From Phoronis australis (lineage: Eukaryota; Animalia; Phoronida), in the NCBI GenBank assembly GCA_002633005.1, contig NMRA01000147.1:733179-797178 (forward strand): a DNA stretch of 64,000 bases, in the 5' to 3' direction. Made by a program: the position numbers and the translations under genes. The notes below the pieces were generated by a model that was not told the origin of the DNA, made no database searches, and worked only from the letters and a program-made list of their open reading frames with translations. Shown in pieces: positions 462-60,044 of the stretch (position 1 is its first letter; every line of letters starts with the position of its first letter).

Positions 462-17936
<17,475 letters not shown>

Positions 17937-36100: not shown

Positions 36101-39100
36101 TGATGATACCGTTTCATTAAACCTAATTTGTCACGTTTCATGGAAATCTGTCAACTAGGAACTCCAAAGATACTGTCACTAGGGGGTATCATAGAAGTCA
36201 GATCTGCCCAAAAGTCGTCGTCAACCGTTGTCAAGTTTGTAGAAATACACCAGTCAAAGATCCAGAAGGAGCGTTCAGGAGATACATCCGCAGACACAAA
36301 AAAGAAAACAGCCACTAGGGTTGCCACAGTAGTCAGAGCCATCCAAAATTCGTCAGCCGTCCTATTGTCAGTACCAACACGTATGTCAATTTTCAAAAAT
36401 ATCCTTACAATGGTTTTGCAGAAGGAGGGGTGGACTTGAAAATCGTTATGATGGCCAATAGGTGGAGCGGAATACGTTGAATTTATCTGAAAATGAGAAG
36501 GCGGTGCTGTCTCTTTAAAAGACACCTATAAGTCAGATTTTATGAAAATCCATCCAGGAACTCCAAAGATGAAGCAAACATAAAAGAATAAAATTGCCAC
36601 TAGCGGGCACAGCAATAGTTGGATCTCTCCGAAAATTTGCTTAGGCGATCCCTTCCACAAACATCCATCAAAAGATTTTGGAAATACAGCAGCAGACCCC
36701 AGACGGATGCTGAACAGACGTGGGCGATAATAATGTGGGTGCATATAACAGACCTCTTACACTAGTCATTTGTTTGGTTCATGGTAGAAAAATGGAGTTT
36801 ACCAAGTTACACAGAGTAATGAACAGTTTGAGAACTAAGACCTTTGAAACGTACGTTTAAAATGGGAAGAAAAAACTTTTATGTTATGAGCTGAAATCAA
36901 ATAACGTTCCAGTATCCTGTATGCCGACATGTCAGATTATATTTTAGCAAGGAATCATTTTAAAACTACATGTAGCATAATGCGCTTTATAAAGTTTTGT
37001 GAAGTAAAGAATGCTACCTCAAGATACATTACACAACACAGCTTGCTACTTGGTACACCGCAACCCCAATTCTTCTGAGCCCTCCGTCATAGTTACTCAC
37101 TGGTGTTTGCAATCATTCAAAATTCATTTAAGTGAAAAACAAAAATTTCAAAGTCTAAAGCCTTGAAGCACAAAGAGAGGTTACAGTCAAAATCAATGTC
37201 ATATAATGCAAGAATATATGACAGTGACACGCGCTTCTTGTTGATATGGACTTTTCAACTCCCGAAATAATGTACATGCACGCAATAAAAAACAAGTTCA
37301 CATCTATTACTTTGCAACTCCACACTCATACCTATGATCCACTTTGATTTGTGTACTTTTATTGAATAATAAGAAGCCATTCAAGCAGGTAACAGAGTTT
37401 CAGCTCGAGCAAACAACAGTCTGTGCAATCATAACGCTACTAATAATTAAAACTACCACGTTACTCATTCAACTTCATAATAATGGCCAACAACTGTAAT
37501 AAATAAAAATGGGCACAAGAGCCTTCTGCAACAAACACTCAAAAAACATAATTTGTGCAAGTTCATGGAGAGGCCATAGACGAGACGAAAGGTAAGTTTA
37601 TCATTGTTGGCATCAATTAAAATGGTCATACTTGGATTATCAGTCACACTTGTTGCCAGCATATCTATGGTGAACGCCATTTTATGACAGCAATGAGTCA
37701 CCAGATAATGGTGTGCGACTATGTTTACTTCTCAACCCGGAGCAAATATTTTAATAGTAAGTAACTCATTCATTTAGTGAAGTGTGGTGCCACTATGACC
37801 CATGCAGTTACATAGAAATAAATTATCTAGAACATTCCAACTCTTAGTGCAAAACCTCAAACACCACATTCCATGGAGCATGCAATTCCCATGGCTGACA
37901 CACTAGTGAATTCCAACATTAGAAACCACCACCATTAATCTCTAACACACTTACCTTTGGAGCCTCTTGGATCTAAAGACAGAAAAAACAAAACATCATT
38001 ACACTCTATACAATCAAGACTGACCACAGCAGAGACAAGTATCATTATTTTAAATAAATTCTTATTCTAAATAAATCCTTATTTCCACTTTTTCGTAAAA
38101 ACAAACCATTTATTTTCAAAAACATTTTATTTGTTTGCGCATGTGAGAAGCCAAGCTTACATTCAGGCTCAGAACCGAAGTGACTTTGGCTAAATGTTGA
38201 TGTCACACATCAGGATAACTTCACAGTGCCAGATGAAGTATTTTTCACAACTACAGCGTGGCCATGTGCAGTGATATGGCGAAAAAATAACATAAAATGT
38301 AATTCATTTGGTAAATGGATGAAAGTATTGAATATAAATTAAGGAACAAATTGAAACATATTAGGTGTATTATTCATACCTAAAAGTCATTTTACCTGTT
38401 CTACACGGAATCTGATGTAAAAATTTTTATCAGGGCACAAAAATACTAATACACTGCTAAACTTACCCTTTTTAAGTGTCTTGTCTTCTTTGGCACCCTT
38501 CCCTTTTGTCTTGTCTTGTTTCTCTTCTTTCTCACCCTATTGGTGACAGAAACATATTAACTATTTGATATCAACAGCACAGCAGATTAACACAACCACA
38601 CAAGCTAGGGTTGCCATCCTTAAACACAAGACACAAGTCGTGCAGATGAAGGTAGTTTGATCACATGCTTTTCTTGTGATGCAGGGCCGTGTCGTGAAGA
38701 CTTATGTGATCTTACTTTTCTAGCAAGGAGCTTGTTCTGCGGATTGCAGACCAGGTTATACTTGAAGGATTTTATGACATGAAACTGAGGTGCAAACGAC
38801 CCTTAGTGAATCCGGACATGCAAGATTGCATAGCACAGTGGTAACATATTTCTGTACGATTTGTGAAGTGAAACACAAACAGTCAGTTTAAAATCTCTCC
38901 TCATACATGAAGGCAGGTGCGAGCTGACGTGCATTCAAGTTATGGCGAATGTCGTTTTAATGGGCAAACACAGGCTCCTGGCTTCTTAAAGGGTAGTACA
39001 CAAAGGTAGTACACAAGTGTGTGGACACAAATTCAGTGTTATGAGTCAAACAATGCCAACCATATTCAGTTGAGACTTACACGCAATCCCATGTAATTTT

Positions 39101-42100
39101 TTTTTAAAAAATAACATGTCATTGACCACATACCAATCACACTGACTCAAGAGTACGTTAACTCAAGGTAAATTATATATTAATATTGTAAACCGTTCCA
39201 AGAGTGAGTTCTTTACAACTTTGAGCTATTTTATGTTTTTCATTTGCACGACAGCACAGTCTATGATCAACTACAAACCACCAGGACCACTGTTATTCAG
39301 TCACAGCAGCAATTTATGAAATCAGACACGTATTGAAGAAACATTGTAGTTGTCATTCAACTCACCTTTTTCATCTTTGATGACTTGTCCCTTGTCTTAT
39401 CTTTGCCTTTATCCGCATGAGAGCTGCTGCGTACAGAACCGGGTCTATCTTTAGAGTCTGCTCGTCTACTTGGTGGTGGCTAGTGAAAGGAAATGACGAT
39501 TAGATAAGGTTATGTAGGAACCTAGAAAAAATTTCAAATTTGGCGAACTTCGGAGCATCACATCTCAGAAATGATATTTTAGAAAACTGTAACAAAATGA
39601 ATGTTTTTGAGATTTTATATTCAAGATTTATATCAAGTGGAATTTGGCTGTGTTACTGATATCGTTGTTGATACCAATTAACATTTTTGCTACATTTTAT
39701 CAAAAAGACAGGATCACACGATTCAATTAATGACACATTTATTTACTAAAAAGCCAAAAAATGAAGTTCTACAGGCTTTCCATTTTCAGAAATATCAACT
39801 TTTACTGAATAGTTTAGTAGACACTTACTGAAATACATTGACATGCCAGCAGAGTCCTATAAAATCTTAACACAAGACGGTAACCCAGCCAGTTACTTAG
39901 ACACCAACGCTCATGCAGCTCCAGTGAGGTTAATGGTCAGATATAACGTGCCTGAATTTTGAGAACCAGTTTTCTCCACTAAATAACAGGCATCAAACTG
40001 CTTCTAAAAATATCGATGGGCACCTTATATCTGACTATTGTTGCAGTGAGAGATGAGCTTAGGACATAGGTATTGTCGTTAAATGACAGAACAAAAAATT
40101 ATGTGAAAAACAACATCAATACCAAGAAAACCATGCTTGACTGCATACAAGATAAATTTAAAGGAAAACTTAAAACTGCAAACAAAATTCCAGCAATCAC
40201 CCTACGTGTCTCAAATGTATTATAAGTTCTCAAAACAGGACACTAAATAATTATTTAACTCCAGGTTTCACAGAGTGGCTCTCAAATATTGTTGACTATA
40301 ATATGAATACAATATGAATACAATATGAATATAATGCGCCTGATATCATTAACTTCCCAAGATTTGCAATTTATTATCACAGCTATTTACAATGAGCAAG
40401 AATAAAAAATCTGAAGGTCACATCATTTTGTCAAATTTTCTGAAAATAAAAAGGCATTGGCGTCTTCTTAATTAAAAGCCTATTAGCTGAAATTCTTGAA
40501 AACCCGTCAAAAACCTACAAAGACTGAGACAACAGCAAATAACCTAAAATTGCCACTAGGGGGCAAAGCGGTAGGCGGATCAGTCCAAAATTCATCAAAA
40601 TTGGTCACTATGCCCATCATGTCCAAAAGTTCGAGACAGCAATGACAGCAGCAGGCACCCACATAATGTATACGTGGCTGCATAAAAAGTACAACGCTAT
40701 AAAACAGTTATGTGCTCAAATCAAGGCTAAGAATTTCCATGATTTCTGTACTCTTTGCTGAACATCTATCTCATTTTTTACTGGATAATATGTCAACTTA
40801 CGTGTATTTGTACCAACGGCTTTGTGTTATCGGTAACGACCATTGAGTCATGAGTTGACCGTGGCTTCACATCCACACTAATCCTCGCATGATCAGAACC
40901 TAACACACTTCCTAAAAATTGTAACTCTGGGCGACCCTAACAAAATTATAGACTATACAAGAAAGCTACATTATTGCATCCTAATTATGAGCTAAAAGAT
41001 ATCACAGAAGCTGCAATATACTATGGCTTGCATTACATTATAAATTCAGGTATTGCAACATTACATAATGTCATATTGTTTTCCAGTGTTCTGTCTCCTA
41101 AAGAGATACCTTATTATACTGAAATAAAATATCATTTTACTAAATAACGTAGGTAATAAATCCACTTTATTCTCCCTTGTATCATTTGCGCATGCACTGT
41201 CTATAATATTATTCAATGTCTCAAGAGTCATCTGATGAAGAGCTGTATTCGCTCAAAAGGTAGCACAGTCTTTTACTGTTTTTTATACTGGAGAATAAGG
41301 GTGCATTTATACAATTGTTTTCACCTCCGTTTTACAGCAAAACTGCAGCCATACACCCACAGATCAATAGTTATTACTGTGACAATGGTTGCAAAACCAA
41401 ATTAAAGAGCAACATACTCCCCACTGATCTTCTGACAAAAATTGTCGACTGTCTCTGCATGAACTAAAATCAGAATCACATTTCCTCCTCCTCTTTGAGC
41501 ATAGCAGTATGTTTTTAAAACCAAGATCAATTATTTAATAATAAAAAGGACAGAACAAGAAGCAAGTAGACAGTCATGTCAACAACTTGACAATTTTTGA
41601 TACTTCCAATTGATTCATTATTTGCGATGAAATAACTTATGACTATAAAAAAATAAGTTACCGATTTCGAGCGTTCCATTCCAGCACCACTTTTGTCAGA
41701 CATGAGTCGACGTCGTTCAACCACCTCTTCATGAGTGAGGCAAAATCTTGATAGACTCTCGGCGAGTGATTTCGTTCCAACATCACCGATCTTGTTACTG
41801 GCAAGGCTGAGGGATAGGAGAGTTCTGTTCATTCTCAGACCCTAAAAAATAAACAGTCAAGCATATAAAGTATATGTAAGAACAAACTTTAAGTAAAGTG
41901 CTGTTCTCACCACATAACGAGTGTGATGGGAACAACAAAAAACTTTGAAACACATTTTTAGCAAAGTTCAAAGACCACTGTGATCTGCGTTTTTGTTTAA
42001 AAATGTTTGCAAATTCAGTGAAAATTTCGATTACACTAAGAATGGTATAATTCTGACTGCTGTCTACTCTGCAATTAAAAATGAGACAGTGACAGGGGTG

Positions 42101-45100
42101 AATAGCACTTCACAATGTTGTAAAAAAGCCGAGAAATTTCAAACTGTGTTCACATAGAAGTAATGTAAATTTGTACACTGCTTGCTACCCTGAGCACGGT
42201 ACGCGAGTACAATATGCGTTTTTGGCTAATTGATGTCACGCAAACTACTTAATGTTTTCAACTTCTATAATTTTTTATTTTGCAATTTTGTCTAACTGGG
42301 ACAAATTCATGTCAGATATTCAGCATTATTGCAGAGTTTTAGAGAAATAATAATATTAAGCTTTGACTATACTACTAACTGGTTCAAAAGCAATGAGAAT
42401 TTAATAATTTCAGCTTTGAGTTAATACAATCATGAAAACATCATACTTTCACATGTAAAAAATAATTTTTAGGTAATTTCACTAAAAAGAAAATACAGTA
42501 AGGTTTCCTCAAATCTGACCAAAAATGATAACTAAAATTGCCATTTAAGCTCATTTTTCAAACGCTCACTGTATTGCCGAAAATAGTCAAAATTCCATTG
42601 CGTTAGTTGCTGACAGTCGTACTAAATAAAAATTTTCAAAAAAAATCAAGTAAAACTGCTCTCTTGTATACTCTTATTGAAAAAATTAATTAAGATAAAT
42701 ACTGTTCCGCTACAGTGTGCTCTGATTTAAAGACACTTAACCGTTTATTATATTACAGAATACACTGCATTAAACACAAACTTGCAAACTAAGTACCTTA
42801 GCAATGCTTGTTGCTCCAGCGTCACCAATCTTGTTCCCGGTGAGATTCAGCGACAGAAGTTTCATGTTCTGCTTTTGTGGAGTTCCCAGCACTTTGCCTA
42901 TTCTTTCAGCCCCTGCATCCGTTAAGCCGCAATATCTCAGCGATAAGCTCTGCAGTCTAGAAAAGTGTCACGTTATGTAATGACTAAACTGTCAAAAACA
43001 CATGCAGCCAAGGAAAGTTTGAGCATTTTAACATAATGATTATTCCTAAACTTTTGCAATGTGAAAAGCAAGAATTCTAATGATTACTGTCAAAACTAGA
43101 TGTATAAAGGTGATTTCTTTTTAGTTTGCATAAATTGTTTAGAGGCTTCTCGCAAATTACATCAGACCATCGAACTCCAGTCCTGGAATGCCAACTCCAG
43201 CACGTGACCAAAACATTTCGTTATTAGAGCTTGTGGCCCCGACAGTAGCCACAATAGTTTGCACTGTGAATTTCCTGCTATCTACTCGACTGAGTTTAGA
43301 TCGAGCGTTATAATTATCAAATCAAGCCTAATTTTCTTACTTCTTTTTAATTTGCTAGACATTTTTGTTCATCAAGTGACACTCTTGAGCTATGGTTGTA
43401 AGACAACCAGTGATTTTCCCGCAAAATAAGTCAACAAACCCGGCAATTACATCGGTCATTCTTTATACGCACCAACCCGTGGCCCTGGCCAGATATTGGG
43501 AATAGTCTAGCCTCTGATATCTGATGAAAGACTTTTTAATGATAGGACTCATAATTACGCAACTGAGTTGAAAAATGGTGGAGTTGCGAAAATTTTTAGA
43601 GACAGGAAATTCCATATCAATAAGCAATTATAACGGAACAAATGAATACAAACAAATGCCACACATGCGTGGGAGCCACCTCAGCAGCGCGAGATTGAAA
43701 TTACACTCCATGGCTAGAGTTCTATGATCAGACACATGTCTTCTCTCAAATAAAATGATGGATGTATTCTGATAAATATATCAACAGAGATTAATACTCA
43801 TGACTCATCCAATAACGATCTTGAGGCAAATGACAGGAAACTTTAAGCAATACCCAGGGTCAATGTGTGAGATGAGTTGAAAAATTACACTGTTTTGATT
43901 TGAGATCAATAAATGCCACCAGGTGTCGCAGAAGCTTGAAAAAGGCAGCATTGCTGACAAAACAATGCTTTAACTTTTCACGAAAGAAAAACAATTTTTC
44001 CGTATCGTATTCTGGAAAATGAAGTCTATCTGTTGTATGAAGCTTGGCTGATACTGCAAAGCTTAAAACATGGAACAAAATCCTGGAATGATACTGCAAA
44101 GCTTAAAACATGGAACAAAATCCTGGAATGATAGCCAGCCTTAGTATTTACTCACAGACTTTCTTCAGTGAGTAAAACATCAAAGTTTTCTTCTTTGACA
44201 AGATTGTTGCCATCAAGACATAGATTTCTGAAAAGACATTAAATACATTACAGTAATTATTATAAATAGATAAATAAAACAACAAGAATGGATCAACTGA
44301 AATTTTCGGATGTATTAACGTCCTTTGTCAACAGAAACAGATATAAAATGTTTGATTTTATTTTATTTCTGTTTCTGTTAACAAAGGACGTTGTTACATC
44401 CGAAAATTTCAGTTGATCCATTCTTGTTGTTTTATTTACCTATTTATATTCTACATTTCGTGAAACAGTAGTATCCTTGGGAGGATCTGGATCGCCTTAT
44501 TTAGTTTCAGATTTATTTTCTACGTTATTAATTATTAGATACACTCAAATTCACTGATTGCACACCACCTGACCCGAAACTCTAGATATCGTATTTCAAG
44601 ATATAATTTAATCTTTCATTTTCAATTTCACTTGATCTGAAGAGTCAGACCATCATTAATACAGAACCCATATTGAATAAAAATAAAACGAGCATTCAAT
44701 AATGCCATAAATAAGTACCACATACAAGGAAATAAAAGGTCCGGTCAAGAATTCTCATTTCCACAGACATGAAATTCTAATAAATCACTTACTTCACATT
44801 AGCACACTGGTGCAAGAACGATCCCAGCAGTTTCACAGTTTCGCTCGTTAGTCCAGCACTCCACAAACTGCAAGGAGTGCAAAAAGAATAAATTATAATA
44901 AATTATGATAATAGTGAAGAGCCAACAAAAGATTTTCCAACTTCTAGTTTCCAACTGTTTAATCTTAATGCAGCCAGCATCAGGTGTGAAGTCATCGTGC
45001 AAGTATTTCTATCCATACCCGTGGTGTCAAGAATATCCACTCGACCCATTCTGTGACCTCCATCAGTTATGGATTCCCTTATCAAAATGTTTAGCTTTGC

Positions 45101-48100
45101 TAATAAAAGGATTTGTAATCAACAGTTTGCAGTGAAGTACCATCTCAATAGAGCACATGGAATATATCACTTCAAATAAAGTTGCTGGCACCCAAATGTT
45201 TCAAGGTTAAAACTGACTCAAGTTCTCCAATCAAAAAGTCAAGGAACATCTCATCAAGGCATTCAGACCTAAGGCACTCCATCTCAATTAATCTATAATT
45301 CTCAAGTGAAGCAGTTGCTTGTTGTTTCTGAAAATCAAAGCGACATTTTTGCAATACACTCACGTAATTGTGTGTAATTTATCCATGACAACCCAGCACT
45401 GCTTGAAGATATTCATCATAGTCTCATCAACTCTCCATCCGCGTACAAATATCTCTGTCACCGTGTCACCTTTGTCAGGATTATCCATTTCAACCTGTAC
45501 TGTTGGCTTAAAGTACTCAAACTTTTCTTTCATAACGTAGGTCTTTGGGGGAGGCTCAACTGGTTCTGGAAAGAATTACAGATATAACATGGATTATTAA
45601 TTACCAAAAATGGAAATTTTATAGAGTTCATGATAAACTAGGTTCATTAGACCAAAGCTCTTTAAAATAAAGCAAACTTCAACGGTGCATGAAAGTCTGA
45701 ACTAACTGCATAAGAATGATCAAAGTCTGTTGAGAATGTGAAACATCAGAATCGAGGGAAGTAAATTTCAAAGACCCTCAAACTCCTTCTTCATCGCAGC
45801 AATGCTCAGGGTTCAGACTCTACTGAAGACACAATTCACTGCTTCAAGTCAACAAGAGCACATCACTGAAAATCCGTGGGCTTGACAATGTTCAAGACAC
45901 AGTCACTTCCACTAGCCAGTTTGAGTCTATACATCTGCAAACTTTGGCAAGACACACAAGTGTGGAAGTCTCACTCTGGTGGTGAGTGTGACAGGCAAAA
46001 AACTTTTTAAACCGTCCTTCCTAATTGCTTATCTTGAACTTCTTAACCAAAACATTTTGAGGTTTAAAACATTGTGACTTTCATCCAGTCTTGAATTGTT
46101 GCTGAAGGGAACTGCAACTCATCACAAGCAATTCCTACACGTGCCATTTTAGAGGTTGCAATTTTAGGGCTGTATAACCAACTCGAATCAAATCTAAAGC
46201 GTTTTCAATTGTCACTGATCATATAATGTTCTTGTTGATAATGGAAACACAATCCTATCACAATAAAGAATAATACGAGATTGATTTTATGAAGTCATAA
46301 AAGGTCCAATTTGGATTTTCAGCCAGCTAAACAGGGCAAAATGTGGCTTCAACCACTACACACAGAGATTAGAAACTCGACACATTCTTCAAATAACGAG
46401 ACAGAATATTTGTCTTGAATATGCCAAGAAACAAACACCGGTCAAGGGAGTAACAAGTGAGCATCTTGACCAGACTTTGACCACGGCAGTACACATGGAA
46501 TTTTTACTCACCCCCTCCCTCAGTGAGCTCTTCCGGCTCTGGTTCAGGCTGGGGGTTCTTGTCCTTCCCTTTTCCACCTTTCTTGTCCTCGTTGGTTTGC
46601 ACCTGACTGGGTGATGGTGGGCGGCGTGCTCGCACAACAACTGGGGGAATGACAGCCATCTGGGCTCGGCGGCACAGCTCCGTGAAGTCATTGTTGAAGT
46701 GACCAGAGCAGACATGCGGTTCTGTGGAATATACAAATGGAAACAAGTCAGAATAGTGATCAACTGCAAAAGCAATGGCATTATGCCACGCAACACAAAA
46801 AATGTGTCAAGGTTTTGTATTGTTCTTATTGGCGTGTTGATGCGTTTAGACAAATATCAGCAAAACTACTGACAGCATTTTATTTAATTAAAACCATTCT
46901 CTGAAGGTAGAAAACTGGTAGAATGTTATTCTAGACTATAAACTTTCAAGAGTCTAATATCTAAACCAATGATACGGATAAATCAAAAACAAGTTTTATG
47001 TAATAAAAATTATTGAGATTAAAACAAAATATATTAGAACAGCAACATAACAGAATATGCAAAATGTATAAGCAATTGGACAACGAAGTCACTGCATAGT
47101 GAATCAGCAGGGGTCTTACGATCGATGACAACACAGTCCTTCATCAGACTCTCCTGTTTGAGTTTGTCGTGTCTCTGTTTCTTTGATTTACTATCTTCAT
47201 TTCAGAAACAAATAATTAACGTATTAGCAAAGACTGTGTTAGCCTTAAGGTCAACAATCAGTAAAACAGTATAGGTTCTGCACTTTCCAGCACCGGTCTA
47301 GTTTACTGAAATAAAATATTGTATATGATAGGCGTGGTGGTCCTTCCTCAAGAAAACTGAAAATAAATGGCTCACTTCTTCCACTGTGGTGAAATCCTTT
47401 TGTTAAAACAGCATTTTGTCTTGTTTAGCTGGCTCAAAATCGAAAATAAAATTAGGCCTTTTACTCTTACCGAACAAAATCGGTCTCATTGCATGCTTAC
47501 CATGGTTTTTCAAACAGTTGATATACTGCTGTACTAACTTACTGTGATAAGATTTTATTTCTGTTTGAAACAAGTGTATTGAAGTCGTCAGCGACTCAAG
47601 AAAACGCTTCTGAGTTTATCAAGGTAGGCCAACCCTAAAATTTCAAATTTGAAAATGGCGCATGTTGAGTCACCAGCCCATGCGGCAACAATTCAAGACC
47701 GGATGAGCACGGTAATTTTTTTAAACCCCAAAGTGCTTCAATCAAGAATTGAATATTAACAGCTAAACAGGGGCAAAATGCAGCTTTAAATAATGAAAGT
47801 TGTGAGCTCAGCAGTAAAACAAAACAAAACACAAAACATTTGCATATTAAGGTTATCTCAAGAGACCTCTATTCTAGCTCATATATATCAAGAAACAGGC
47901 TATGTCATCCAGTAACAGTATACATTTTCTGAAAGAAAAAAGACCAGAGATTATAAAAATGTGTTTTATAATCAGATTTTGGCCAAATCATAGAAATTTA
48001 AAAATCAGCGCAACTACATAGACTTTCATGTTCAACGTTTCGCTTTAACCATTAATGCATAATTGCAATAATAAACCATGAATGTACACTCATCAGTGGC

Positions 48101-51100
48101 ATTAATATTATTACATTACCTACTTTTTAAGTCAAAATTCCATTTTTCAGAAAGGTACATTGATTTCATAGCAAAAAATCCCCTTAATCGATTTTAACAA
48201 AACCCTTTTACTTCACAATTTACCTAAAAATGCTAAGAATTTTAGATTACTCAATTGGTTTTGTTTCTATGCCAAATTATTAACTCGCAAAATGTAAGAT
48301 ATTCTTCTCAATGATAGCAATTAGCAGCATATGATGATAAAACGATGTATTTAAATTGCCTTGACCAGTTTCGGCATTTATTAAAATGGCGAAAGTAGAT
48401 GGGACGGTGTTTTAATAAAAACCAAATGAAAACAGGTCAAGCAAATTTAAATCAATTGCTGTTTTTATCAACGTCAGACATTTTTGTAATAAATAGCAGT
48501 TAAATTCATCTATCTTACAGTACGCAAAAAAACTAGACATTTAAAACAAAAAACCTAACAGCATTCTTGAAACTGGTGAATAAAAATTAAAACTGGAAAA
48601 TTTCAAAGAAATTCACCGAGCCGTTTTCGAGAACTTGTGTTGCTAAGTACAAGTAACGTTGATTTGCCAAAGCCGAGAAAAAGCCGGAAAGGTTACGAGT
48701 CGTGAAAATCTGAAGGTTTCTGATTAATTATTTGACGGAAACTTGTTTTTGGTCACCTGGTGCTGTTACCTTGGTTGTTAGTAATTTGAACATTTACTCG
48801 CACTGTCAACTGAATTTGCAGTGCATAATTAACTTTATTATCACTAATTTGGTTAAGTTGGTTGACAACGAATTGAGTGAAACTTGCTTAGGGGAGGAGT
48901 TAAACTCTTGACCTATTAAAACAGATCAACAATACATTGTAGTACACGACACATGTCGAAGCATGTGCTGAGGAGACTGAAAGAAACCAATCTGGGTGAG
49001 GATTTATCTTTTTTCACAACTTGCTGTGTTCGTAATATGCCAGGTACTGTGCAGCGCTATCAATGGCCGTATGTACGCTTGCAGATGTCCAATTCACTCA
49101 GGATCAAAAAGTATATTTTTGTTTTCCACAGCATCTTTCCATGGTATGTACACCTCATTAACTCAATCTTATGGCATTGAATGAAAGGTCTATGAATAGC
49201 GAGAAGTGCATAAGCCAAGCTGGAAATTCATTTTGAGCGACAGCCCTGTAACCTTTTACCATGGATACGAAGTAAACAATTTTCCATGCAGTTGAAGGTG
49301 GTTCTGAATGTTTCTGCTAATTTTTTTTTCTTGCTGCACGGCATAATATTTTGAATTTGTTCCCCAAGACAGAAGGCATTTTGTGACACGTGTGAAATAT
49401 TGTGAAAACAGTACTTTTTGTGAATAAGGTTTGAAATAAACATCAGCTGGGTAAACAGATTTAGAAAGGGAGGATAACACTAACACTAACACACACTAAA
49501 ACACTGCATTCCATAAACTAAAGTAAATTACACTTGGCTAATTGTTCTCAACAGAATATTGCATGTTAGCAATGCATTTTAGCTGCAAATCTAATCTTAA
49601 GAAAATTACAAAGTTGGTCTCTCTTTGTAAGAAAAAGCGAACATTGAACAAAATCTATAACATGAAAATCAAACAAAACCACACAAGAAGGAATCAGTCA
49701 CAGGTCATTCACTTTAAAAATGAAACATGCTAACAACTTGACACTTTGACACTTGCATTTTTATTAATAAATATTCAATTCTTCTCAAACTAATATTCTG
49801 TCATCGAAATGATCAGGCCATGGAATGAAAATTTTTAAATTTAAATTCGCCTGTCATAGCAATGCCAGGTACAGTCATGTACAAGACTCGATGACAAGCT
49901 CTAAAATGTGAAGTGCTGCCAGTGTGACTATATGAATGACACTATGATATCTTGCAATTTGTCAACAGTTTACTATGGCCCATCTTCATTAGAGAAGAAG
50001 TCGACACAGGCTTTTGACTGTGTTTGGCAAAATCTGCTGGATTTGGACTTGGTCTTCTGCTGTGCTTGGGGGACGCAGTCTTTGAAAGAGAGCCTATAGT
50101 AAAGATCACAGAGGGAGAGAGAAAGAGAGAGAGTTAGATAGATAGTGTGCTCGAACTAAGGCAGAAATTTGTGCACTTCTTTAATTTAGATTTTGCAACT
50201 GGCTTATGGCTATACCTGGTGCAAAACATCACAGGTTATTTCATAAAAACAGACCTTTCGCCAAAGCAAGATGAGAAGCAAATGAATGTGGGTTTTTGTC
50301 GCACATCCCTTGGTGTCAATGTGCCAACCAGTTTCCTGCACAATGGAATTTGACTGAAGTTTGTAAGACCTCATGCCAGTTTTCCACTTGCAAAGCAGGG
50401 CGATTTCGTCCCATTTTTCGGCTGGGAATCCACAAGAAATGTTTTTTTAAAGAGTAAAAAAGTTTGAAATCGGCTGTTAATTTCAAATTAAGCAAATCAA
50501 TATGCTTTTGGTTTTTGAAAGATGAAGCAAAACAAGTTCAAACATTTTTATACTTAATTCAAATACACTGCAGTGCATGTTCAAAACACAAAAACAAGAA
50601 ACAGGCATGTCTTGTTTTATGTCTTCACACAAAACTGACGGAGGATAACTATTAGGTATTTTACCCCTTAGCTTGTGCTTAAGTTAAGACACAGTAACAA
50701 AGAATTATAACTGAACTTTGTGCAGTAATTAATAGTATCTCAGATTGTAGTGACTAACTACTATCACACTGTGAAGCAACCAAATCAATTAGGAGAGTAA
50801 GTTTACCACAATTTATTTCTGATCCGCTGCCCTGTTGAATAGTTGAACTATTCAAACTTCCTGAACCGCCAGCTACAAGGCTACGCTGATTTTTATGTTT
50901 CTTCTTTGATTTCTGCTTCATTTCTGTCAGACGTTTACAATATTTCCAACTGACACTGCCTCAGCACTGTTGCTACTGAATGTGAGTCTGATGTAACAGA
51001 TGATGATGTCATACAATTAACTTTTTGTAGTTTGTAGACAGCTAAAACAATTTGACAGATGAACCATGACAAAGCACCGAACAAAGACATGGATGCTTTT

Positions 51101-53332
51101 GTAAGCTTATCTTCTCAAATCTGATAAAATGCATTTTGGAATTTTTCTAAAGTTTATAAATTTACCAATTAAGGGGTTCAGCATGGTTTGCAAAAAAACT
51201 TCAAGCAGTCATTGTTTATAAAAAATTGGTCGATTATTATGAGTTTAAATAATAAAATCATTACTTAATTTCAGAAATCTTGACTTTGTGTTGAGTTTAT
51301 GATATTATAGAGTTAACGGCACCTGACATCAAATTTCACATTGACAGCACACTATGAGACACATCATTCCAAATTCCATGACGACCTTTGAACTTCAAAT
51401 GTAAACTCTGAGGCAGGCACAGAAAATGAAATTGCCATTAGGAAACCATAACAGTAGTTGGATTCATACATACAAAAATCAAGGTCAGCTATGCTCTCCT
51501 CACTAAAAACACATCTTTTAAATTTCGCACTCGTTATCTACCATTTACTTTGGTCCAAAATGATTTTCAGCTTAAACAGCAGTATATAGACTTAATGCAA
51601 GACTGAGATCAATGTTAAGTATAAGCATTCTTACTTATGAAATATAATGAAATGGCCTCCATAGATAAATGAAAATGTCGAGGCAGGAAGGTCAGAACAT
51701 ACTTTCCTGGTAAGTTTTCAGCAACATATACTTTCAGGAAAAAATATTTAAGCAGAGTCTCATTATATTCTCCCAATTCAGGCACAAGTCCTGGATCGTG
51801 TCCATCCTTGTCAATACACTGGAGACATAGGAAGTATTTTGCAATCCAAAACAGGGACTCTGTGCCCAGCTGAATAAAGCAATCTCACGTAGGGACACAA
51901 CTAAGTGTCTTCCCTAAATATTTTTGTGTATTTGTGTTGTTTGTCGCTCACAGATGAAATCTTTTTACTTAATCTGCATCTTCTGCTCCTCTTTGACTGA
52001 AGACATTTTCTAAATAGTGTAGAAAATTTCGTGATGACCGAGACTTGAACCCGGGTTGCACCAGCGACAGTCACGCATCTAAACCATTCGGCCAAGAGGC
52101 AATTGCCACTTGGCAAGCGGCTTAGAGAGGCTTTTATCTGAATGTATGTGTCATGACAACCGAAAGTCACGCTTCACAACACTACTCCCCCTTTTGCGGA
52201 ACAGGCGCGCTCCCTGGTGTTTAGATCTCAGCAACAACCTAGCGTCCTGGAATTCGACCTCAACAACGCTCTCTTTTGTGTTCTGAATCCACCAGTACCA
52301 GGTCGCACCCTCTCCATCATGTAGAAAATTTCGTGATGGCCGAGACTTGAACCCGGGTTGCACGAGCGACAGTCACACATCTAAACCATTTGGCCAAGAG
52401 GCAATTGCCACTTGGCAAGCGGCTTAGAGAGGCTTTATCTGACTGTACGTGTCGTGACAACCGGAAGTCACGCTTCACAACAATAGTACAACTGAAACCC
52501 GAGCCCTTAGTTCACTGAAAATTAACAGGGTCATAGTCCTTAAATATAAGTGTTGCATGAAAAAGTCACAATTTATTTTGAATTCAGTGTGGAGTTTACT
52601 TCCAGGGTGCATCAAAGCAAAAAATAACACTTAGTAATGAAAATAAAACAGCATAAGAAAGGACAATCAGTGTTTGCTCAAGTCCACAAATGCTGTGAAA
52701 AGTTAAGGAACGTAAAAGAGTCCCTATTTGGGACTGTTTCATGAAGTCGGGCACTGGACCCCATATACCTACAGCTGAAAATTCACAAGGTCTTGATTAT
52801 TACACGTAAGATATCGTACAGAACAAATTATTCGATCCAATATCAATTCTTTGACACTATAATTTATACCATATTCCAAAAACATTTTAACGATATTTGT
52901 GCTATAATTATTGCAGAAAAGTACAACCAGTCTGAGAGTGTAGGCGATTATATAAACAGGCTATGAGTGTTTGAATATTGTCCTTTTTGAGCATTCGCAA
53001 ATTCATTTTGTATTGTTTACATTATGCAATAGTTGATGAGTTTCCAGGACACTTAAAGTCACCAAAAACTTGTGTGAAAAATCTGTAGCTAATGATCTGT
53101 ATAAATCTAACATATGTATCATCTTTGATACCGATACTTCCTAAAATAATAAGAATTACCCGAGTTTCACCACAACAGTTGTCATGATACAACATCATAC
53201 CGATACCATCCAAACTGAACGACAGGTCTGCTTACCTAAGATTCTATTGTCGTCATCTCCACCATCATCTGTATGACCTTTGGCACTTGCCACTTTCTCC
53301 TTGTCTTTGCCCTTTTCAAATTTCTTACCCAT
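23928..53332 (-). CDS. LRRC71: Leucine-rich repeat-containing protein 71 orthologue, whole spliced CDS (~650-690 aa depending on cassette and terminal exons)
   Basis: Minus-strand GT-AG exons chain in phase. Segments EPHVCSGHFNNDFTELCRR, VTEIFVRGWRVDE, LCLDGN, LQSLSLRYCGLTDAGA, LLSLNLTGNKIGDAGA, GLRMNRTLLSLSLASNKIGD, LTHEEVVERRRL and GNRVLINLNLSRNEIGDEG match the recalled LRRC71 architecture (ribonuclease-inhibitor-like LRRs, Lys-rich linker, C-terminal LRR). Confidence 0.88.
24560..24672 (-). CDS. LRRC71: LRRC71 exon (NEIGDEGISSMLTSMQYQ...GPGLMRIALH)
   Basis: cttcag|113 nt|gtgagt. Confidence 0.9.
25204..25309 (-). CDS. LRRC71: LRRC71 exon (PETPENLSPLLD...GNRVLINLNLS)
   Basis: ttgtag|106 nt|gtgagt. 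Confidence 0.9.
25819..26107. mobile_element. Tc1/mariner(pogo)-like MITE remnant
   Basis: TA|CAGTAAAATTTCTCTAATTTGGGACAGT is imperfectly inverted at ACTATCCCAACTTGGAGAATTTTTGC; internal aatttgggac repeats. Confidence 0.5.
28196..28290 (-). CDS. LRRC71: LRRC71 exon (SVVVDNTKAATTRGKDKKGKDKKGAVAQESE)
   Basis: ccttag|95 nt|gtgagc. Confidence 0.85.
32194..32275. repeat. Tandem duplication, 2 x 41 bp
   Basis: cacggtttt(t/a)gatgcatacc(a/g)ataccaccaagcaaccatca twice. Confidence 0.85.
33286..33324 (-). CDS. LRRC71: LRRC71 39-nt small exon (AATAANVGGRSSG)
   Basis: tttctgtag|CAG... |gtcagt; phase 1-1; NAGNAG acceptor. Confidence 0.65.
34454..34525 (+). mobile_element. Degenerate tRNA-derived sequence (SINE head or tRNA-Cys-like pseudogene)
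   Basis: ggggtttaactctgtcagaagagcatcggactgcaacc...gattcaattcc resembles A box, GCA anticodon loop and B box; no acceptor stem. Confidence 0.4.
35590..36750 (-). mobile_element. Second copy of the same HINE-like family, inverted
   Basis: Shares gccactagggggc units and blocks similar to 6430-6800 in reverse complement. Confidence 0.6.
37955..37972 (-). CDS. LRRC71: LRRC71 18-nt microexon (DPRGSK)
   Basis: ttttctgtctttag|ATCCAAGAGGCTCCAAAG|gtaagt; phase 1-1. Confidence 0.72.
38467..38536 (-). CDS. LRRC71: LRRC71 Lys-rich exon (GEKEEKQDKTKGKGAKEDKTLKK)
   Basis: caatag|70 nt|gtaagt. Confidence 0.85.
39366..39479 (-). CDS. LRRC71: LRRC71 exon (PPPSRRADSKDRPGSVRS...KMKK)
   Basis: cactag|114 nt|gtgagt. 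Confidence 0.87.
40500..40690 (-). mobile_element. Short truncated copy of the HINE-like family
   Basis: aaattgccactagggggca at ~40547-40565 plus a related terminus. Confidence 0.45.
41662..41841 (-). CDS. LRRC71: LRRC71 LRR exon (GLRMNRTLLSLSLASNKIGD...EEVVERRRL...)
   Basis: ttttag|180 nt|gtaact. Confidence 0.93.
42797..42956 (-). CDS. LRRC71: LRRC71 LRR exon (LQSLSLRYCGLTDAGAERIG...GNKIGDAGATSIAK)
   Basis: ttctag|160 nt|gtactt. Confidence 0.92.
44051..44133. repeat. Perfect tandem duplication, 2 x 40 bp
   Basis: atactgcaaagcttaaaacatggaacaaaatcctggaatg twice. Confidence 0.9.
44156..44227 (-). CDS. LRRC71: LRRC71 exon (NLCLDGNNLVKEENFDVLLTEES)
   Basis: tttcag|72 nt|gtgagt. Confidence 0.9.
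44261..44528. mobile_element. Long inverted repeat (arms ~44261-44349 / ~44356-44448); probable Penelope-like element fragment with inverted pLTR
   Basis: Near-perfect ~90-bp arms; each contains ctg-TT(G/A)ACAA-a-ggacg..catcc-GAAAATTT-cag; flanking direct repeat taattatta at 44254 and 44529. Confidence 0.65.
44793..44867 (-). CDS. LRRC71: LRRC71 exon (LWSAGLTSETVKLLGSFLHQCANV)
   Basis: ttgcag|75 nt|gtaagt. Confidence 0.9.
45364..45565 (-). CDS. LRRC71: LRRC71 exon (…KFEYFKPTVQVEMDNPDKGDTVTEIFVRGWRVDE…)
   Basis: ttccag|202 nt|gtgagt. Confidence 0.9.
46512..46721 (-). CDS. LRRC71: LRRC71 exon (EPHVCSGHFNNDFTELCRR...)
   Basis: ccacag|210 nt|gtgagt; conserved N-terminal LRRC71 segment. Confidence 0.9.
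47120..47194 (-). CDS. LRRC71: Candidate LRRC71 cassette exon (SKSKKQRHDKLKQESLMKDCVVID)
   Basis: 75 nt, open in phase 1-1, donor gtaaga; acceptor (gaag) is weak. Confidence 0.38.
48335..48470. repeat. Imperfect inverted repeat (~135 bp)
   Basis: tgataaaa..atttaaattgccttgacc..ttttattaaaa mirrored by ttttaataaaa..ggtcaagcaaatttaaat..ttttatca. Confidence 0.65.
49974..50093 (-). CDS. LRRC71: LRRC71 symmetric exon (SLSKTASPKHSRRPSPNP...)
   Basis: Strong (CT)n pyrimidine tract and tatag acceptor; 120 nt open; donor gtaaac. Confidence 0.62.
50807..50923 (-). CDS. LRRC71: LRRC71 symmetric (phase 1-1) exon, possibly cassette or alternative start (EMKQKSKKKHKNQRS...)
   Basis: ctgacag| 117 nt open frame |gtaaac. 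Confidence 0.55.
52018..52482 (-). mobile_element. Complete TRIM (non-autonomous mini LTR retrotransposon) with tRNA-derived LTRs; Helenus-like
   Basis: Direct repeats 52018-52181 and 52320-52482 (TGT...ACA, 8 substitutions + 1 indel by eye); 4-bp TSD ATAG at 52014-52017 and 52483-52486; minus-strand PBS-like TGATGGAGAGG right after the 5' LTR; PPT AAAAGGGGGAGTAG right before the 3' LTR; A box and B box inside each LTR. Confidence 0.9.
53236..53332 (-). CDS. LRRC71: LRRC71 first coding exon (MGKKFEKGKDKEKVASAKGHTDDGGDDDNRIL)
   Basis: Acceptor tgatttcag at 53352, ATG at 53332, donor TTAG|gtaagc; phase 1 matches downstream exons. Confidence 0.75.
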
Positions 53333-55574: not shown

Positions 55575-58500
55575 AAAAACTGCATGCAAATTAAGAAAAG
55601 TTTTGAGTCATTTCACATCACAAGCCCTTCAGATGAGCACAGAAACTTTGTACTCTCTTGTATTTTTGACCCTTTCACTCCCCGGCAGTGGAAACCATCT
55701 ATACAATTCAGTAGAAAAATAAGAGCAAAAATGCAAAATGGGCACTTTTCACCCCAAAATCACCACTTCCCTGCCGATGCTCGACTAAAGCCAACATTAG
55801 ATTCCGAGGCCGATTCCAAAAATGTGGTCCAAAAGTGCTGTCAGACAACTAGTTTTTTGAAAATCGGGCTTGTTTGAGGGCTAACTGAAATCGCGGACAA
55901 TTTCTCAGTTGCCGCTACACAGCAATGCACAATTGCAACAGGGGGCCACCATCTTGAAGAAGAGTGCAGCTACAGCCGAGAAAGTGGCCTTTTTTCATTC
56001 TCAGCATGTTCACAAATACAAACAAACCACATTCACTGAGCCTACATGCAATGCCTACCTACAAAATGCCCCCGGCCCAAACTTGGCCTACCCCAAAATT
56101 TTAATATTTTAGCAATCCAAATTGGCCCTTTTGCAGGGTAGATTTTCTGCCTCACCTCCAATGCAGTGGGCCTTTTGCATGCAGGGACGAAGGCCGGCGA
56201 CGCGGCACGGCGCGGGGCGGAGTCCTGCAAAACTTGTTGAAAAAGTACCGCCTATCCGTAATTCGGCCACGGCGCCAGTGAGCATCTTGTCAATGTAAGT
56301 GACCCCCGGGAGCTTACGATCGGCGGGTTGATTATGTCTATCCGCTCCGGGTCTCTGAATGAATTCTGGAATCGGATGGCATCGTTCCAGCTGCTGTCAT
56401 CAATTGGTTTAGAAAAGACTTCCCCACTCAAGACTAATCTTGTGCTCTTTATATCGTGTCACTTTCGATGTTAATTGCCAACACTGGAGCATTAGATCCC
56501 GGGGCACTACTACCTCAGTCCCCGTGGCCCGCCCTAAATTTTCGTGATGCCTGCTGGATCGGTCAGAATCTGGAGCAGGCCTATAGATTTTCTGGCCTTA
56601 TGCAACTGCGGTCTTAGAAACTGACGAAGCCGGTTTCACAAACCACCGGAAGAGTTGATCTCATCATATACAAACTAATCCTCCTAGATGATGAGGAACG
56701 CGTAAGGCTAATTTCAAGCTCTCAAAGTTCGTCAATTTTGGTATTACGTTATCGTGTAATTATAACGAGTTGGCTACCCAACTCCACTCAGTGATATACG
56801 AAACTCTTGTGATATATAACCGCCGGTATAGAACGGTGGCCGTCACCGGTTGTGCTAAAACTTACCGTGGATATGAGTCGATTGGGCGTTTTATCAAGTC
56901 AGTAAATTTATCTGTTTCGGCACGACAGCACATACACAACATGATGTCTATGCTACGAAACACCACGGAAAGTAGGCGCTGCGGTTAATTGACCGGCGGG
57001 CCGGGGCCCATGGCTCCCCGTTTTACTGTCACAATCAAAATCTGCCGTTTTATGGTTTAGGCGGATATTTCCCTCATATGAACAACGATGCCCCCCGCCC
57101 GAAGACAAGATCTCGGAAGCAGTGTTCTAAAACGAAATCTTCGTATTTGAACCTTCATAGGCGACAGCCTGTCAACAATAATGCGTACCTACGACAACAC
57201 TAAATTAATCTATTAAAAGTTCTCAATTTGAATTAATCCGATCGCTCATACATAATGTATCACACCAGCCCCTTCTTCTATGATTTTAATCAATGTAGAA
57301 TACTTCTCCTGTTGACAGTTAACAATTAGCACTGGTGAGATTTACNAAAAACTGCATGCAAATAAAGAAAAGTTTTGAGTCATTTCACATCACAAGCCCT
57401 TCAGATGAGCACAGAAACTTTGTACTCTCTTGTATTTTTTACCCTTTCACTCCCAGTGGAAACCATGCAATTAGAAAAATAAGGGCAAAAATGCAAAATG
57501 GGCACTTTTCACCCCAAAATCACCACTTCCCTGCCGATGCTCGACTAAAGCCAACATTAGGTTCCGAAATCAAATTTCCTACCGATTCCAAAAATGTGGT
57601 CCAAAAGTGCTGTCAGCCAATAATATAGTTTTTTTGAAAATCGGGCTTGTTTGAGGGCTACCTGAAATCGCGGACAATTTCTCAGTTGCCGCTACACAGC
57701 AATGCACAATTGCAACAGGGGGGCCACCATCTTGAAGAAGAGTGCAGCTACAGCCGAGAAAGTGGCCTTTTTTCATTCTCAGCATGTTCACAAATACAAA
57801 CAAACCACATTCACTGAGCCTACATGGCAATGCCTACTGTGACCTACAAAATGCCCCCGGCCCAAACTTGGCCTACCCCAAAATTTTAATATTTTAGCAA
57901 TGCAAATTGGCCCTTTTGCAGGGTACATTTTCTGCCTCACCTCCAATGCAGAGGGCCTTTTGCATGCAGGGACGAAGGCCGGCGACTGGGACGCGGCACG
58001 GCGCGGACGGAGTCCTGCAAAACTTGTTGAAAAAGTACCGCCTATCCGTAATTACTTTCGGCCACGGCGCCAGTGAGCATCTTGTCAATGTAAGTGACCT
58101 CCGGGAGCTTACGATCGGCGGGTTGATTAAAGTATGTCTATCCGCTCCGGGTCTCTGAATGAATTCTGGAATCGGATGGCATCATTCCAGCTGCTGTCAT
58201 CAATTGGTTTTTCAACACCGTAGAAAAGACTTTCCCACTAATCTTGTGCTCTTTATATCGTGTCACTTTCGATGTTAATTGCCAACACTGGAGCACTGGA
58301 TCCCGGGGCACTACTACCTCAGTCCCCGTGGCCCGCCCTAAATTTTCGTGATGCCTGCTGGATCGGTCAGAATCTGGAGCAGGCCTATAGATTTTCTGGC
58401 CTTATGCAACTGCGGTCTTAGAAACTGACGAAGCCGGTTTCACAAGCCACCGGAGGAGTTGATCTCATCATATACAAACTAATCCTCCTAGATGATGAGG

Positions 58501-59147
58501 AACGCGTAAGGCTAATTTCAAGCTCTCAAAGTTCGTCAATTTTGGTATTACGTTATCGTGTAATTATAACGAGTTAGCTACCCAACTCCACTCAGTGATA
58601 TACGAAACTCTCATAACCGCCGGTATAGAACGGTGGCCGTCACCGGTTGTGCTAAAACTTACCGTGGATATGAGTCGATTGGGCGTTTTATCAAAAGTCA
58701 GTAAATTTATCTGTTTCGGCACGACAGCACATACACAACATGATGTCTATGCTACGAAACACCACGGAAAGTAGGCGCTGCGGGTAATTGACCGGCGGGC
58801 CGGGGCCCATGGCTCCCAGTTTTACTGTAACAACCAAAAACTGCCGTTTTATGGTTTAGGCGGACATTTCCCTCATATGAACAACGATGCCCCCCCTCCC
58901 GAAGACAAGATCTCGGAAGCAGTGTTCTAAAACGAAATCTTCGTATTTGAACCTTCATAGGCGACAGCCTCCATCAACAATAATGCGTACCTACGACAAC
59001 ACTAAATTAATCTATTAAAAGTTCTCAATTTGAATTAATCCGATCGCTCATACATAATGTATCACACCAGCCCCTTCTTCTATGATTTTAATCAATGTAG
59101 AATACTTCTCCTGTTGACAGTTAACAATTAGCACTGGTGAGATTTAC
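55575..59147. repeat. Tandem duplication of ~1.8 kb (55575-57345 / 57347-59147) joined by a single N
   Basis: Both copies begin aaaaactgcatgcaaat and end ggtgagatttac; N at 57346; many small indels between copies. Confidence 0.95.
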
Positions 59148-60044
59148 GGAAATAGTCATGGTCCATAGAGATTAATATTAACTCGGTAGGGCGTGAATTG
59201 TACGGTACGTATATAGCTATAAGCTATTGAGCTTGGTCAATTGCAGTGCTCACTAACGCCATTTAGAATGTTTGACAAAAACTTGACTTTCATATGTATG
59301 TTTACAAGCAAATCAAGGACATCAACATGGTGATATAACTTGGGAAACCATTTCCATTTGCGCATGAACAAAAAAAAATGTCACAACAGTCTCAGTATTT
59401 GACGCCCACAGACAATCGTGCAAAGGTCGTCGGATCAAAGCTCCACAGCGTATACCATTTCGAGAATATAGGTGCTCTCATGAGGCTTGTTTCATTGAAT
59501 GTCATAACCTTAGGATGTTTTTTTTTTTACTCAGAGTCAAAACGGAGACGAAATCATGCAGTCGGCCATAAATACGACTGAAAGCAAATAAAAGTCTCCG
59601 TTTAGACGGAAAAGTTGCGACAATTTAGAGAAACATGTCCCTATAAATTTTACATTACACCTTACACCTCAGGGATCAAATTTAGAACAACAAAGTAGAC
59701 AAACATGCGAGGTTGCTAGCACTGGCTCGTACGGGAAGTGTAGAAATTGTACAGCAGGCAAGATACTCACACCACGACATCAACATGCTGTCTAACACTG
59801 ACTACCCCGGCAAATATCACAATTAAACAAAACTGGTTGTTTTTCTGATTCCGCAAAAGGGTCAGTATTTAAGAGTACGAAGACGCTATTCAAGGTTTAT
59901 AGTGGACCTACAGGTGTATAACTCAGTAAGGTTACCTGTATTTACGAAGGGGAGATATTGACTATAACAAGCCATTACAAGACAAAAGAACGAAGACGAA
60001 ATTCTTCGACTGAAGAATATGCAAACTAAGCTGGGGGGGGGGGG

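Follow-up and report, generated by a model that had tools for sequence, protein, structure and literature searches.

We analysed a window of 64,000 nucleotides from Phoronis australis (assembly GCA_002633005.1, contig NMRA01000147.1, positions 733,179 to 797,178 of the forward strand), which holds two convergent genes, DPP9 on the plus strand (465-17933) and LRRC71 on the minus strand (53332 to about 24000), and, inside the predicted first intron of LRRC71 (46722..53235), a compact element of 465 bp (52018..52482). Coordinates are positions in the window, and the element is read on the minus strand. In a preliminary description made from the sequence, it had been proposed as a non-autonomous retroelement whose long terminal repeats (LTRs) are built around a tRNA-like gene for RNA polymerase III (Pol III). 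In our view the element is likely to be an intact mini LTR element, non-coding and present in many copies, of the animal Helenus type, with predicted Pol III transcription from the A and B boxes of its 5′ LTR, and it would be copied and inserted by the proteins of an autonomous Gypsy helper.

Direct-repeat comparison divided the element into a 5′ LTR of 163 bp (52320..52482), a non-coding interior of 138 bp (52182..52319) and a 3′ LTR of 164 bp (52018..52181), with both LTRs running from TG to CA. The target-site duplication (TSD), ATAG, was found at 52483..52486 on the 5′ side of the element and at 52014..52017 on its 3′ side. The two flanks are identical over 4 bp and the comparison fails at 3, 5 and 6 bp, so that the TSD is exactly 4 bp in this copy, the only one from which it was read; at the composition of the window, the chance of a 4-bp flank match is 0.5%. 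On the minus strand the interior starts with TGATGGAGAGG and ends with AAAAGGGGGAGTAG, and a polypurine tract (52182..52195) adjoins the 3′ LTR. The two LTRs differ by eight substitutions, six of them transitions (four in a CpG context) and two transversions, and by one gap, which corresponds to a Kimura two-parameter (K2P) distance of 0.051. The longest stop-free frame has 73 codons and the longest from a methionine 50, leaving no capacity to code for mobilisation proteins, and blastn found the element as a single copy in the window. For the interior, the predicted fold is a single long rod with −47.5 kcal/mol and a z of −2.5 (equalled by 3 of 200 shuffles), and a 6-bp hairpin lies close to the 5′ end of the LTR, in U3 (52453..52472), where the 3′ LTR copy also folds, with one pair changed to G-U. 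The element is thus an intact non-coding mini LTR retrotransposon (TRIM, a miniature terminal-repeat retrotransposon), and its anatomy agrees with what had been described before: two direct repeats of about 164 bp that begin with TG and finish with CA, a non-coding interior of 138 bp, an ATAG TSD, a polypurine tract abutting the 3′ LTR, and LTRs that diverge by about 5%, partly through CpG transitions.

Each LTR carries a tRNA-derived module on the same strand, and the box A, CTGTCGC loop, box B and TTTT that had been claimed were found at the expected places in both copies. Box A lies at 52386..52396 in the 5′ LTR, where it fits the TRGCY...YGG pattern of PMC10886601, and at 52084..52094 in the 3′ LTR; the loop at 52372-52366 and 52070-52064; box B at 52344..52353, within an intact 5-bp T stem, and at 52042..52051; and the run of four T (T4) at the end of the LTR at 52325..52328 and 52023..52026. 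The latter run is the predicted terminator, and the former would have to be read through. In the 5′ LTR, the anticodon-like arm (52361..52377) has a 7-nt loop with a central, Asp-like GTC and pairs at 5/5 positions, compared with 4/5 in the 3′ LTR; the T arm pairs at 5/5, and the distance from G53 to T8 is 44 nt. The earlier wording of a tRNA-shaped module therefore holds for the anticodon and T arms but not for the remainder, as the acceptor stem pairs at only 1/7 positions and the D stem is lost. The module is a promoter relic that has kept its boxes and cannot fold into a tRNA, and not a tRNA gene. A tRNA search of the kind that had been suggested pointed the same way, with 0 tRNA genes in the default ARAGORN run and 0 Rfam matches, either on 51800-52700 (E up to 1) or over the whole window (gathering scores), although the A and B boxes are present nonetheless, and the cloverleaf fold of the module has a z of about 0. 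At a lowered threshold ARAGORN called an Asp(gtc) tRNA on the 3′ LTR, which we did not count, since two other genes were called as well, one of them antisense in flanking DNA. A box A followed after 25-50 nt by a box B occurs three times on the two strands of the window, twice in the element; the third occurrence (10055-9995, minus strand), in a DPP9 intron and without LTR features, is probably due to chance. On the sense strand, T4 runs are limited to the two LTR-end copies, whereas the opposite strand has three; the lack of an internal sense-strand T4 is consistent with Pol III transcription, if only weakly.

To look beyond the window, we compared positions 51400-53100 with two of the four DNA runs that contain the stretch, all from one sample, possibly the source of the window, and with two RNA runs (standard paired RNA-seq), all under the same species label. 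In run X1, the depth of single-copy flanks was about 50, that of interior bins 746-1639 and that of LTR bins up to 9570, where summed contig depths are not copy numbers. One interior variant (52237) was carried by 29 contigs. Three contigs (records 3, 4 and 5) cross the LTR-interior junction with 17-24 differences, and another (record 2) contains a whole LTR, differing at 22 positions, within 1843 nt of sequence otherwise unmatched in the stretch, which makes it solo-LTR-like. The family is therefore interspersed and multi-copy, with both full and solo-LTR-like copies. Both LTRs in the window have a C (52074 and 52376) where nearly all other contigs have an A (depth 6089/6126.5 and 2736.5/2809.8, respectively); such a shared private base is as expected if one RNA templated both LTRs, and gene conversion could also account for it. 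None of the 15 contig joints listed, of 26, represents an empty insertion site. The joint 52011-52501 was considered as one and rejected, since other letters stand between its ends, and we read it as a paralogue of the older repeat that flanks the element. At another joint (52090-52341), an LTR copy with a different 3′ end abuts a further copy, which suggests either a related subfamily or a nested insertion. A metagenome search with an 18-nt LTR motif returned 19 loci, all with only short matches (18-28 nt) around the motif.

The much greater depth of LTR bins than of interior bins, by which free LTR-like units outnumber full elements, would also be expected if two tRNA-derived short interspersed elements (SINEs), or a local duplication, mimicked an LTR pair by chance. 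Elements of the SINE2 class share with the Phoronis element a tRNA-derived internal promoter and a decayed cloverleaf, but their first part is the tRNA head and their last an A-rich or simple-repeat tail, whereas here an upstream U3 places 65-70 bp of LTR ahead of the tRNA module, the unit ends in CA without a tail, and a purine tract and a fixed 4-bp TSD are present. Moreover, the repeats have TG...CA ends, an exact TSD surrounds the pair and the purine tract adjoins the second repeat, many further copies of the interior exist and are attached to LTRs at other places, and an excess of solo LTRs is the usual state of Helenus families in the part of Table S3 of PMC10886601 considered. A chance pair is thus extremely improbable. 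Neither of the two outcomes named beforehand as speaking against an LTR element, a lack of further copies or the prevalence of tail-ended SINE copies, was seen, as the other copies keep their LTR-interior junctions and the tailless CA end.

The putative primer-binding site (52302..52319) adjoins the 5′ LTR and was examined by eye against Fig. S2 of PMC10886601; our comparisons with published consensus sequences took in every non-insect animal family in the supplement of that paper and, from its Table S1, the animal rows. The proposed tRNA-Ala primer stood up only in part, since 9 of 11 positions match the motif that had been put forward but a mismatch falls within the CCA pairing, and the assignment to Ala is not established. 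A reading with a 3-nt spacer would presumably imply a U73 tRNA (Cys type). By eye, the site matches the Leu-type site of Helenus-2_LAn at 12 of 18 positions without gaps. Among the primers listed for animal Helenus in the supplement (Lys, Leu, Trp, Arg, His, Ile, Pro, Glu and Ser), Ala does not appear, and a literature search for an Ala-primed Gypsy partner found nothing relevant. The poor match to a host tRNA would be explained if the element primed itself, with the 3′ acceptor strand of the tRNA-like module pairing with the start of the interior; a fold across the LTR end does pair 52339-52334 with 52319-52314 (6 bp), with four further pairs. However, this fold is no better than those of shuffled sequences (z −0.8; 35 of 200), most other copies, like the 3′ LTR, have G-U at one of the six pairs (position 52339), and the pairing ends two bases before position 73, so that a normally cut tRNA end would not give a clean primer. 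In addition, Kojima did not find such complementarity in other families (PMC10886601). We consider self-priming very unlikely and keep priming by a host tRNA as the proposed route.

Directly ahead of box A, each LTR contains a hairpin of 24 nt whose core is a 10-bp palindrome and whose closing strand consists of the first bases of box A (52393..52416 in the 5′ LTR, with the core at 52409-52400; 52091..52114 in the 3′ LTR, of identical sequence). The hairpin occupies the place of the 5′ acceptor strand, and its core is the perfect palindrome GGCAATTGCC. The predicted fold has −14.5 kcal/mol, with 1 of 1000 base shuffles equally good, and the pair probabilities are 0.97-1.0 when the hairpin stands at the start of the RNA, with the inner pairs near 1 in every context that holds the whole hairpin. 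Among the 127,858 24-mers of the window, only the two LTR copies combine a central 10-bp palindrome with a fold of −12 kcal/mol or below. In a model, a dimer of the hairpin has −40.2 kcal/mol compared with −29.0 for two monomers, a gain that any palindromic hairpin would show and that points to a possibility rather than a function.

Taken together, these features suggest how the element might be copied. Pol III would start at the palindromic hairpin or within it, 8-20 nt upstream of box A (52416-52404), partly read through the T4 of the 5′ LTR and stop at that of the 3′ LTR, giving an RNA of 382-394 nt with a terminal repeat of 80-92 nt, enough to rebuild both LTRs. The hairpin would lock the 5′ half of the tRNA module, so that the RNA would be spared tRNA processing, and two RNAs may pair through its palindrome for packaging, for which the rod-like interior (z −2.5) is a second candidate signal. 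A Gypsy helper would then package and reverse-transcribe the RNA, with a host tRNA at 52319 and the purine tract at 52195-52182 as primers, and integrate it at a stagger of 4 bp.

Several points weigh against this proposal. Read-through is the weak step of the mechanism: since the same T4 ends the 5′ LTR, a full-length RNA needs leaky termination. Short T runs are weak Pol III terminators; our literature search gave nothing usable on leaky T4 termination in this context. None of the tRNA ends given for animal Helenus in the part of PMC10886601 compared matches the primer site cleanly. Pol III use is deduced for the Phoronis element as it is for all Helenus, and PMC10886601 itself states that it has not been demonstrated for any of them. 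Finally, RNA reads cover the LTRs and the interior on both strands; only a small part are at least 95% alike (71 of 1065 and 68 of 1060), and 93-94% of the reads continue into unlike sequence, figures that refer to the whole 1.7-kb stretch including the neighbouring repeat. These reads look like copies within other transcripts rather than a discrete element RNA, while RNA-seq of this type is uninformative on a short Pol III product. As a separate observation, variants at the LTR end (52027 and 52030, also 52329 and 52332) occur in most RNA reads with the first mate on the plus strand (28 of 33 and 22 of 24 at 52027) and are nearly absent from the DNA contigs compared, possibly the mark of a single copy that is expressed or of an allele carried by other individuals.

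The same RNA data would fit a true TRIM whose tRNA piece is the vestige of an old SINE insertion and whose RNA comes from RNA polymerase II (Pol II), through a U3 promoter or by read-through from genes such as LRRC71. The both-strand reads that run on into unlike sequence and the sense orientation of this copy in an intron are in line with such an origin, as is the T4 at the end of the 5′ LTR, which would stop part of any Pol III transcript. On the other hand, the two boxes, the distance between them and the T stem have been kept while the acceptor and D stems were lost, and a short non-polyadenylated RNA would be missed by standard RNA-seq. Both boxes are also conserved across Helenus families (PMC10886601). 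We therefore consider a Pol II origin unlikely, and Pol III transcription from the LTR boxes remains the reading that we prefer.

To see how widespread the palindromic hairpin is, we surveyed by eye the published Helenus LTRs of non-insect animals in the supplement of PMC10886601, allowing G-U pairs and one central unpaired base and leaving out wasp and fungal families. The same architecture, with a self-complementary core of 8-12 bp enclosed by a stem whose last bases are the first of box A, was found in 54 of 76 LTRs: 18 of 18 from vertebrates (one without the outer stem), 33 of 51 from bivalves, 3 of 3 from nemerteans, 0 of 3 from Lingula and 0 of 1 from a ctenophore. Many of the 54 are closely related, so that they represent far fewer independent changes. 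The core sequence varies while its self-complementarity stays, as in GGGTTAACCC of Helenus-1_CGi, GAAGTACTTC of Helenus-1_MyGa, GAGCCGGCTC of Helenus-1_AcRu and GGGAATATTCCC of LTR2_Lch. The words 'palindrom', 'hairpin' and 'dimer' are all absent from the main text of PMC10886601, and our literature search found no description of a Helenus hairpin. On this comparison by eye, the hairpin appears to tie the Phoronis australis family to the Helenus group of fishes, bivalves and nemerteans.

Retroviruses and Ty1 have palindromic signals for RNA dimerisation, and the hairpin may act in a like manner. We raise, tentatively and as a view that may well prove wrong, the possibility that it is a conserved, family-specific signal for dimerisation and packaging with which the Pol III transcript begins at its 5′ end, and that it is the mark of a single Helenus lineage, either ancient or spread horizontally, to which the families of fishes, coelacanth, bivalves, nemerteans and Phoronis australis would belong. 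The idea of a single lineage, which belongs to this tentative proposal, runs counter to the published view of mostly separate Helenus origins. What ties a TRIM to its helper when their LTRs share no homology is called unknown in PMC10886601; the hairpin, which fits within an RNA of 390 nt, would be a concrete candidate for such a signal, and it could serve as a character by which to group those Helenus families that have become too different in sequence for alignment.

With regard to the genomic setting, the sense orientation of the element within an LRRC71 intron, as previously claimed, was borne out and could be narrowed to the predicted intron 1. On the minus strand, LRRC71 exons were recognised between 46721 and about 24000. 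A first coding exon is predicted at 53332-53236; splicing of its phase-1 donor to the acceptor at 46722 yields E-P-H-V, which homologues have as well. Exon 1 alone is weakly similar (tblastn E 0.95-5.5), and MGKK stands at or near the N-terminus in 9 of 13 homologues. Within the intron, the element appears to be nested in an older repeat (51862..52754) resembling a miniature inverted-repeat transposable element, with degenerate inverted ends at 51862-51936 and 52685-52754 (64% over 75 nt, E 5e-4), because its right flank is high-copy and contigs join the left flank at 52011-52014 directly to 52630-52718. The depth over 52597-52767 reaches 28,720 compared with 50, and this segment is plentiful in RNA reads. 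The protein encoded by the neighbouring DPP9 is, over the aligned exons, 58% identical to that of Lingula, 58% to that of Owenia and 57% to that of Lineus. In a quick tree of 27 rows, it fell outside the mollusc clade (18 rows; Shimodaira-Hasegawa-like approximate likelihood ratio test, SH-aLRT, 99), its place being unresolved among brachiopod, nemertean, annelid and priapulid rows, so that on these data the host is probably a spiralian other than a mollusc.

Other repeats were noted in the window. Upstream of LRRC71, a tandem duplication of about 1.8 kb (55575-59152; 97-100% identity), with N nearby, may be an assembly artefact or recent. An 89-bp inverted repeat (44261-44448; 94% complementary, 10-nt spacer) lies in an LRRC71 intron and a minisatellite with a 20-bp period (1475-2234) in a DPP9 intron, and a dispersed, degenerate repeat family is found in both orientations in introns of the two genes (6559-8249, 35714-36641 and 40545-40597).

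Among known systems, the element was compared with three further kinds of TRIM. The plant Cassandra and the nemertean Ajax are, like it, TRIMs with a Pol III promoter inside each LTR and a strongly folded RNA, and Cassandra transcripts are reported to pass through intervening LTRs in arrays (PMC7215508, in the part considered). In the sources covered, however, their LTRs contain 5S rRNA sequence with boxes A and C, whereas the Phoronis element has A and B boxes of the tRNA type; the TSD of Ajax is 5 bp compared with 4 bp here. At E up to 1, Rfam matched nothing derived from 5S rRNA in the LTR, a result that is weak alone, as the tRNA module was missed too. The biv-TRIM elements of bivalves are likewise short animal TRIMs without a clear canonical primer site and with inverted repeats in the interior, but a Pol III module in their LTR is not mentioned in the part of PMC6934838 consulted.

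The closest counterpart is animal Helenus (TRIMp3), which Kojima (2024) characterised by a length below 1000 bp, by boxes of the TRGCY/YGG and GGTTC types, by a TSD of 4 bp and by a Gypsy-like primer-binding site (PMC10886601). The resemblance to this group with a 4-bp TSD, suggested earlier, is borne out by the boxes in the LTRs, the TSD, the size, which lies within the published animal range in the families compared, and the lack of coding capacity. Both also have a tRNA-derived module of box A and box B followed by a short T run in each LTR, with a broken cloverleaf, a polypurine tract and an excess of solo LTRs. In the supplementary consensus sequences compared, the likeness extends to the self-complementary hairpin directly ahead of box A, for which Helenus-1_PiIm has the same GCCA/TGGC closing stem, to a polypurine-tract end of the GGGGGAGTAG type, seen by eye in the interiors of several bivalve families, and to Asp-like loops in some bivalve families. 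By eye, the nearest layouts were those of Helenus-1_PiIm (pearl oyster), Helenus-1_CGi, Helenus-1_LiLo, LTR2_Lch and LTR-11_DR. In contrast, LTRs of 163-164 bp with a 138-bp interior occur in none of the listed families, 0 of 9 motifs from the window were found in the whole of Data S1, where FASTA line breaks can hide single matches, and the host does not belong to Mollusca and is distinct from both Lingula anatina and Lineus longissimus. The earlier suggestion of an uncatalogued family thus holds provisionally, in that it apparently has no match among the Kojima 2024 consensus sequences by which alone it was judged, while the kind itself had already been described. The element apparently represents a new family of the animal Helenus kind in a host lineage that appears to be outside the published list; it would widen the host range of Helenus and adds a further family that needs masking in annotation.

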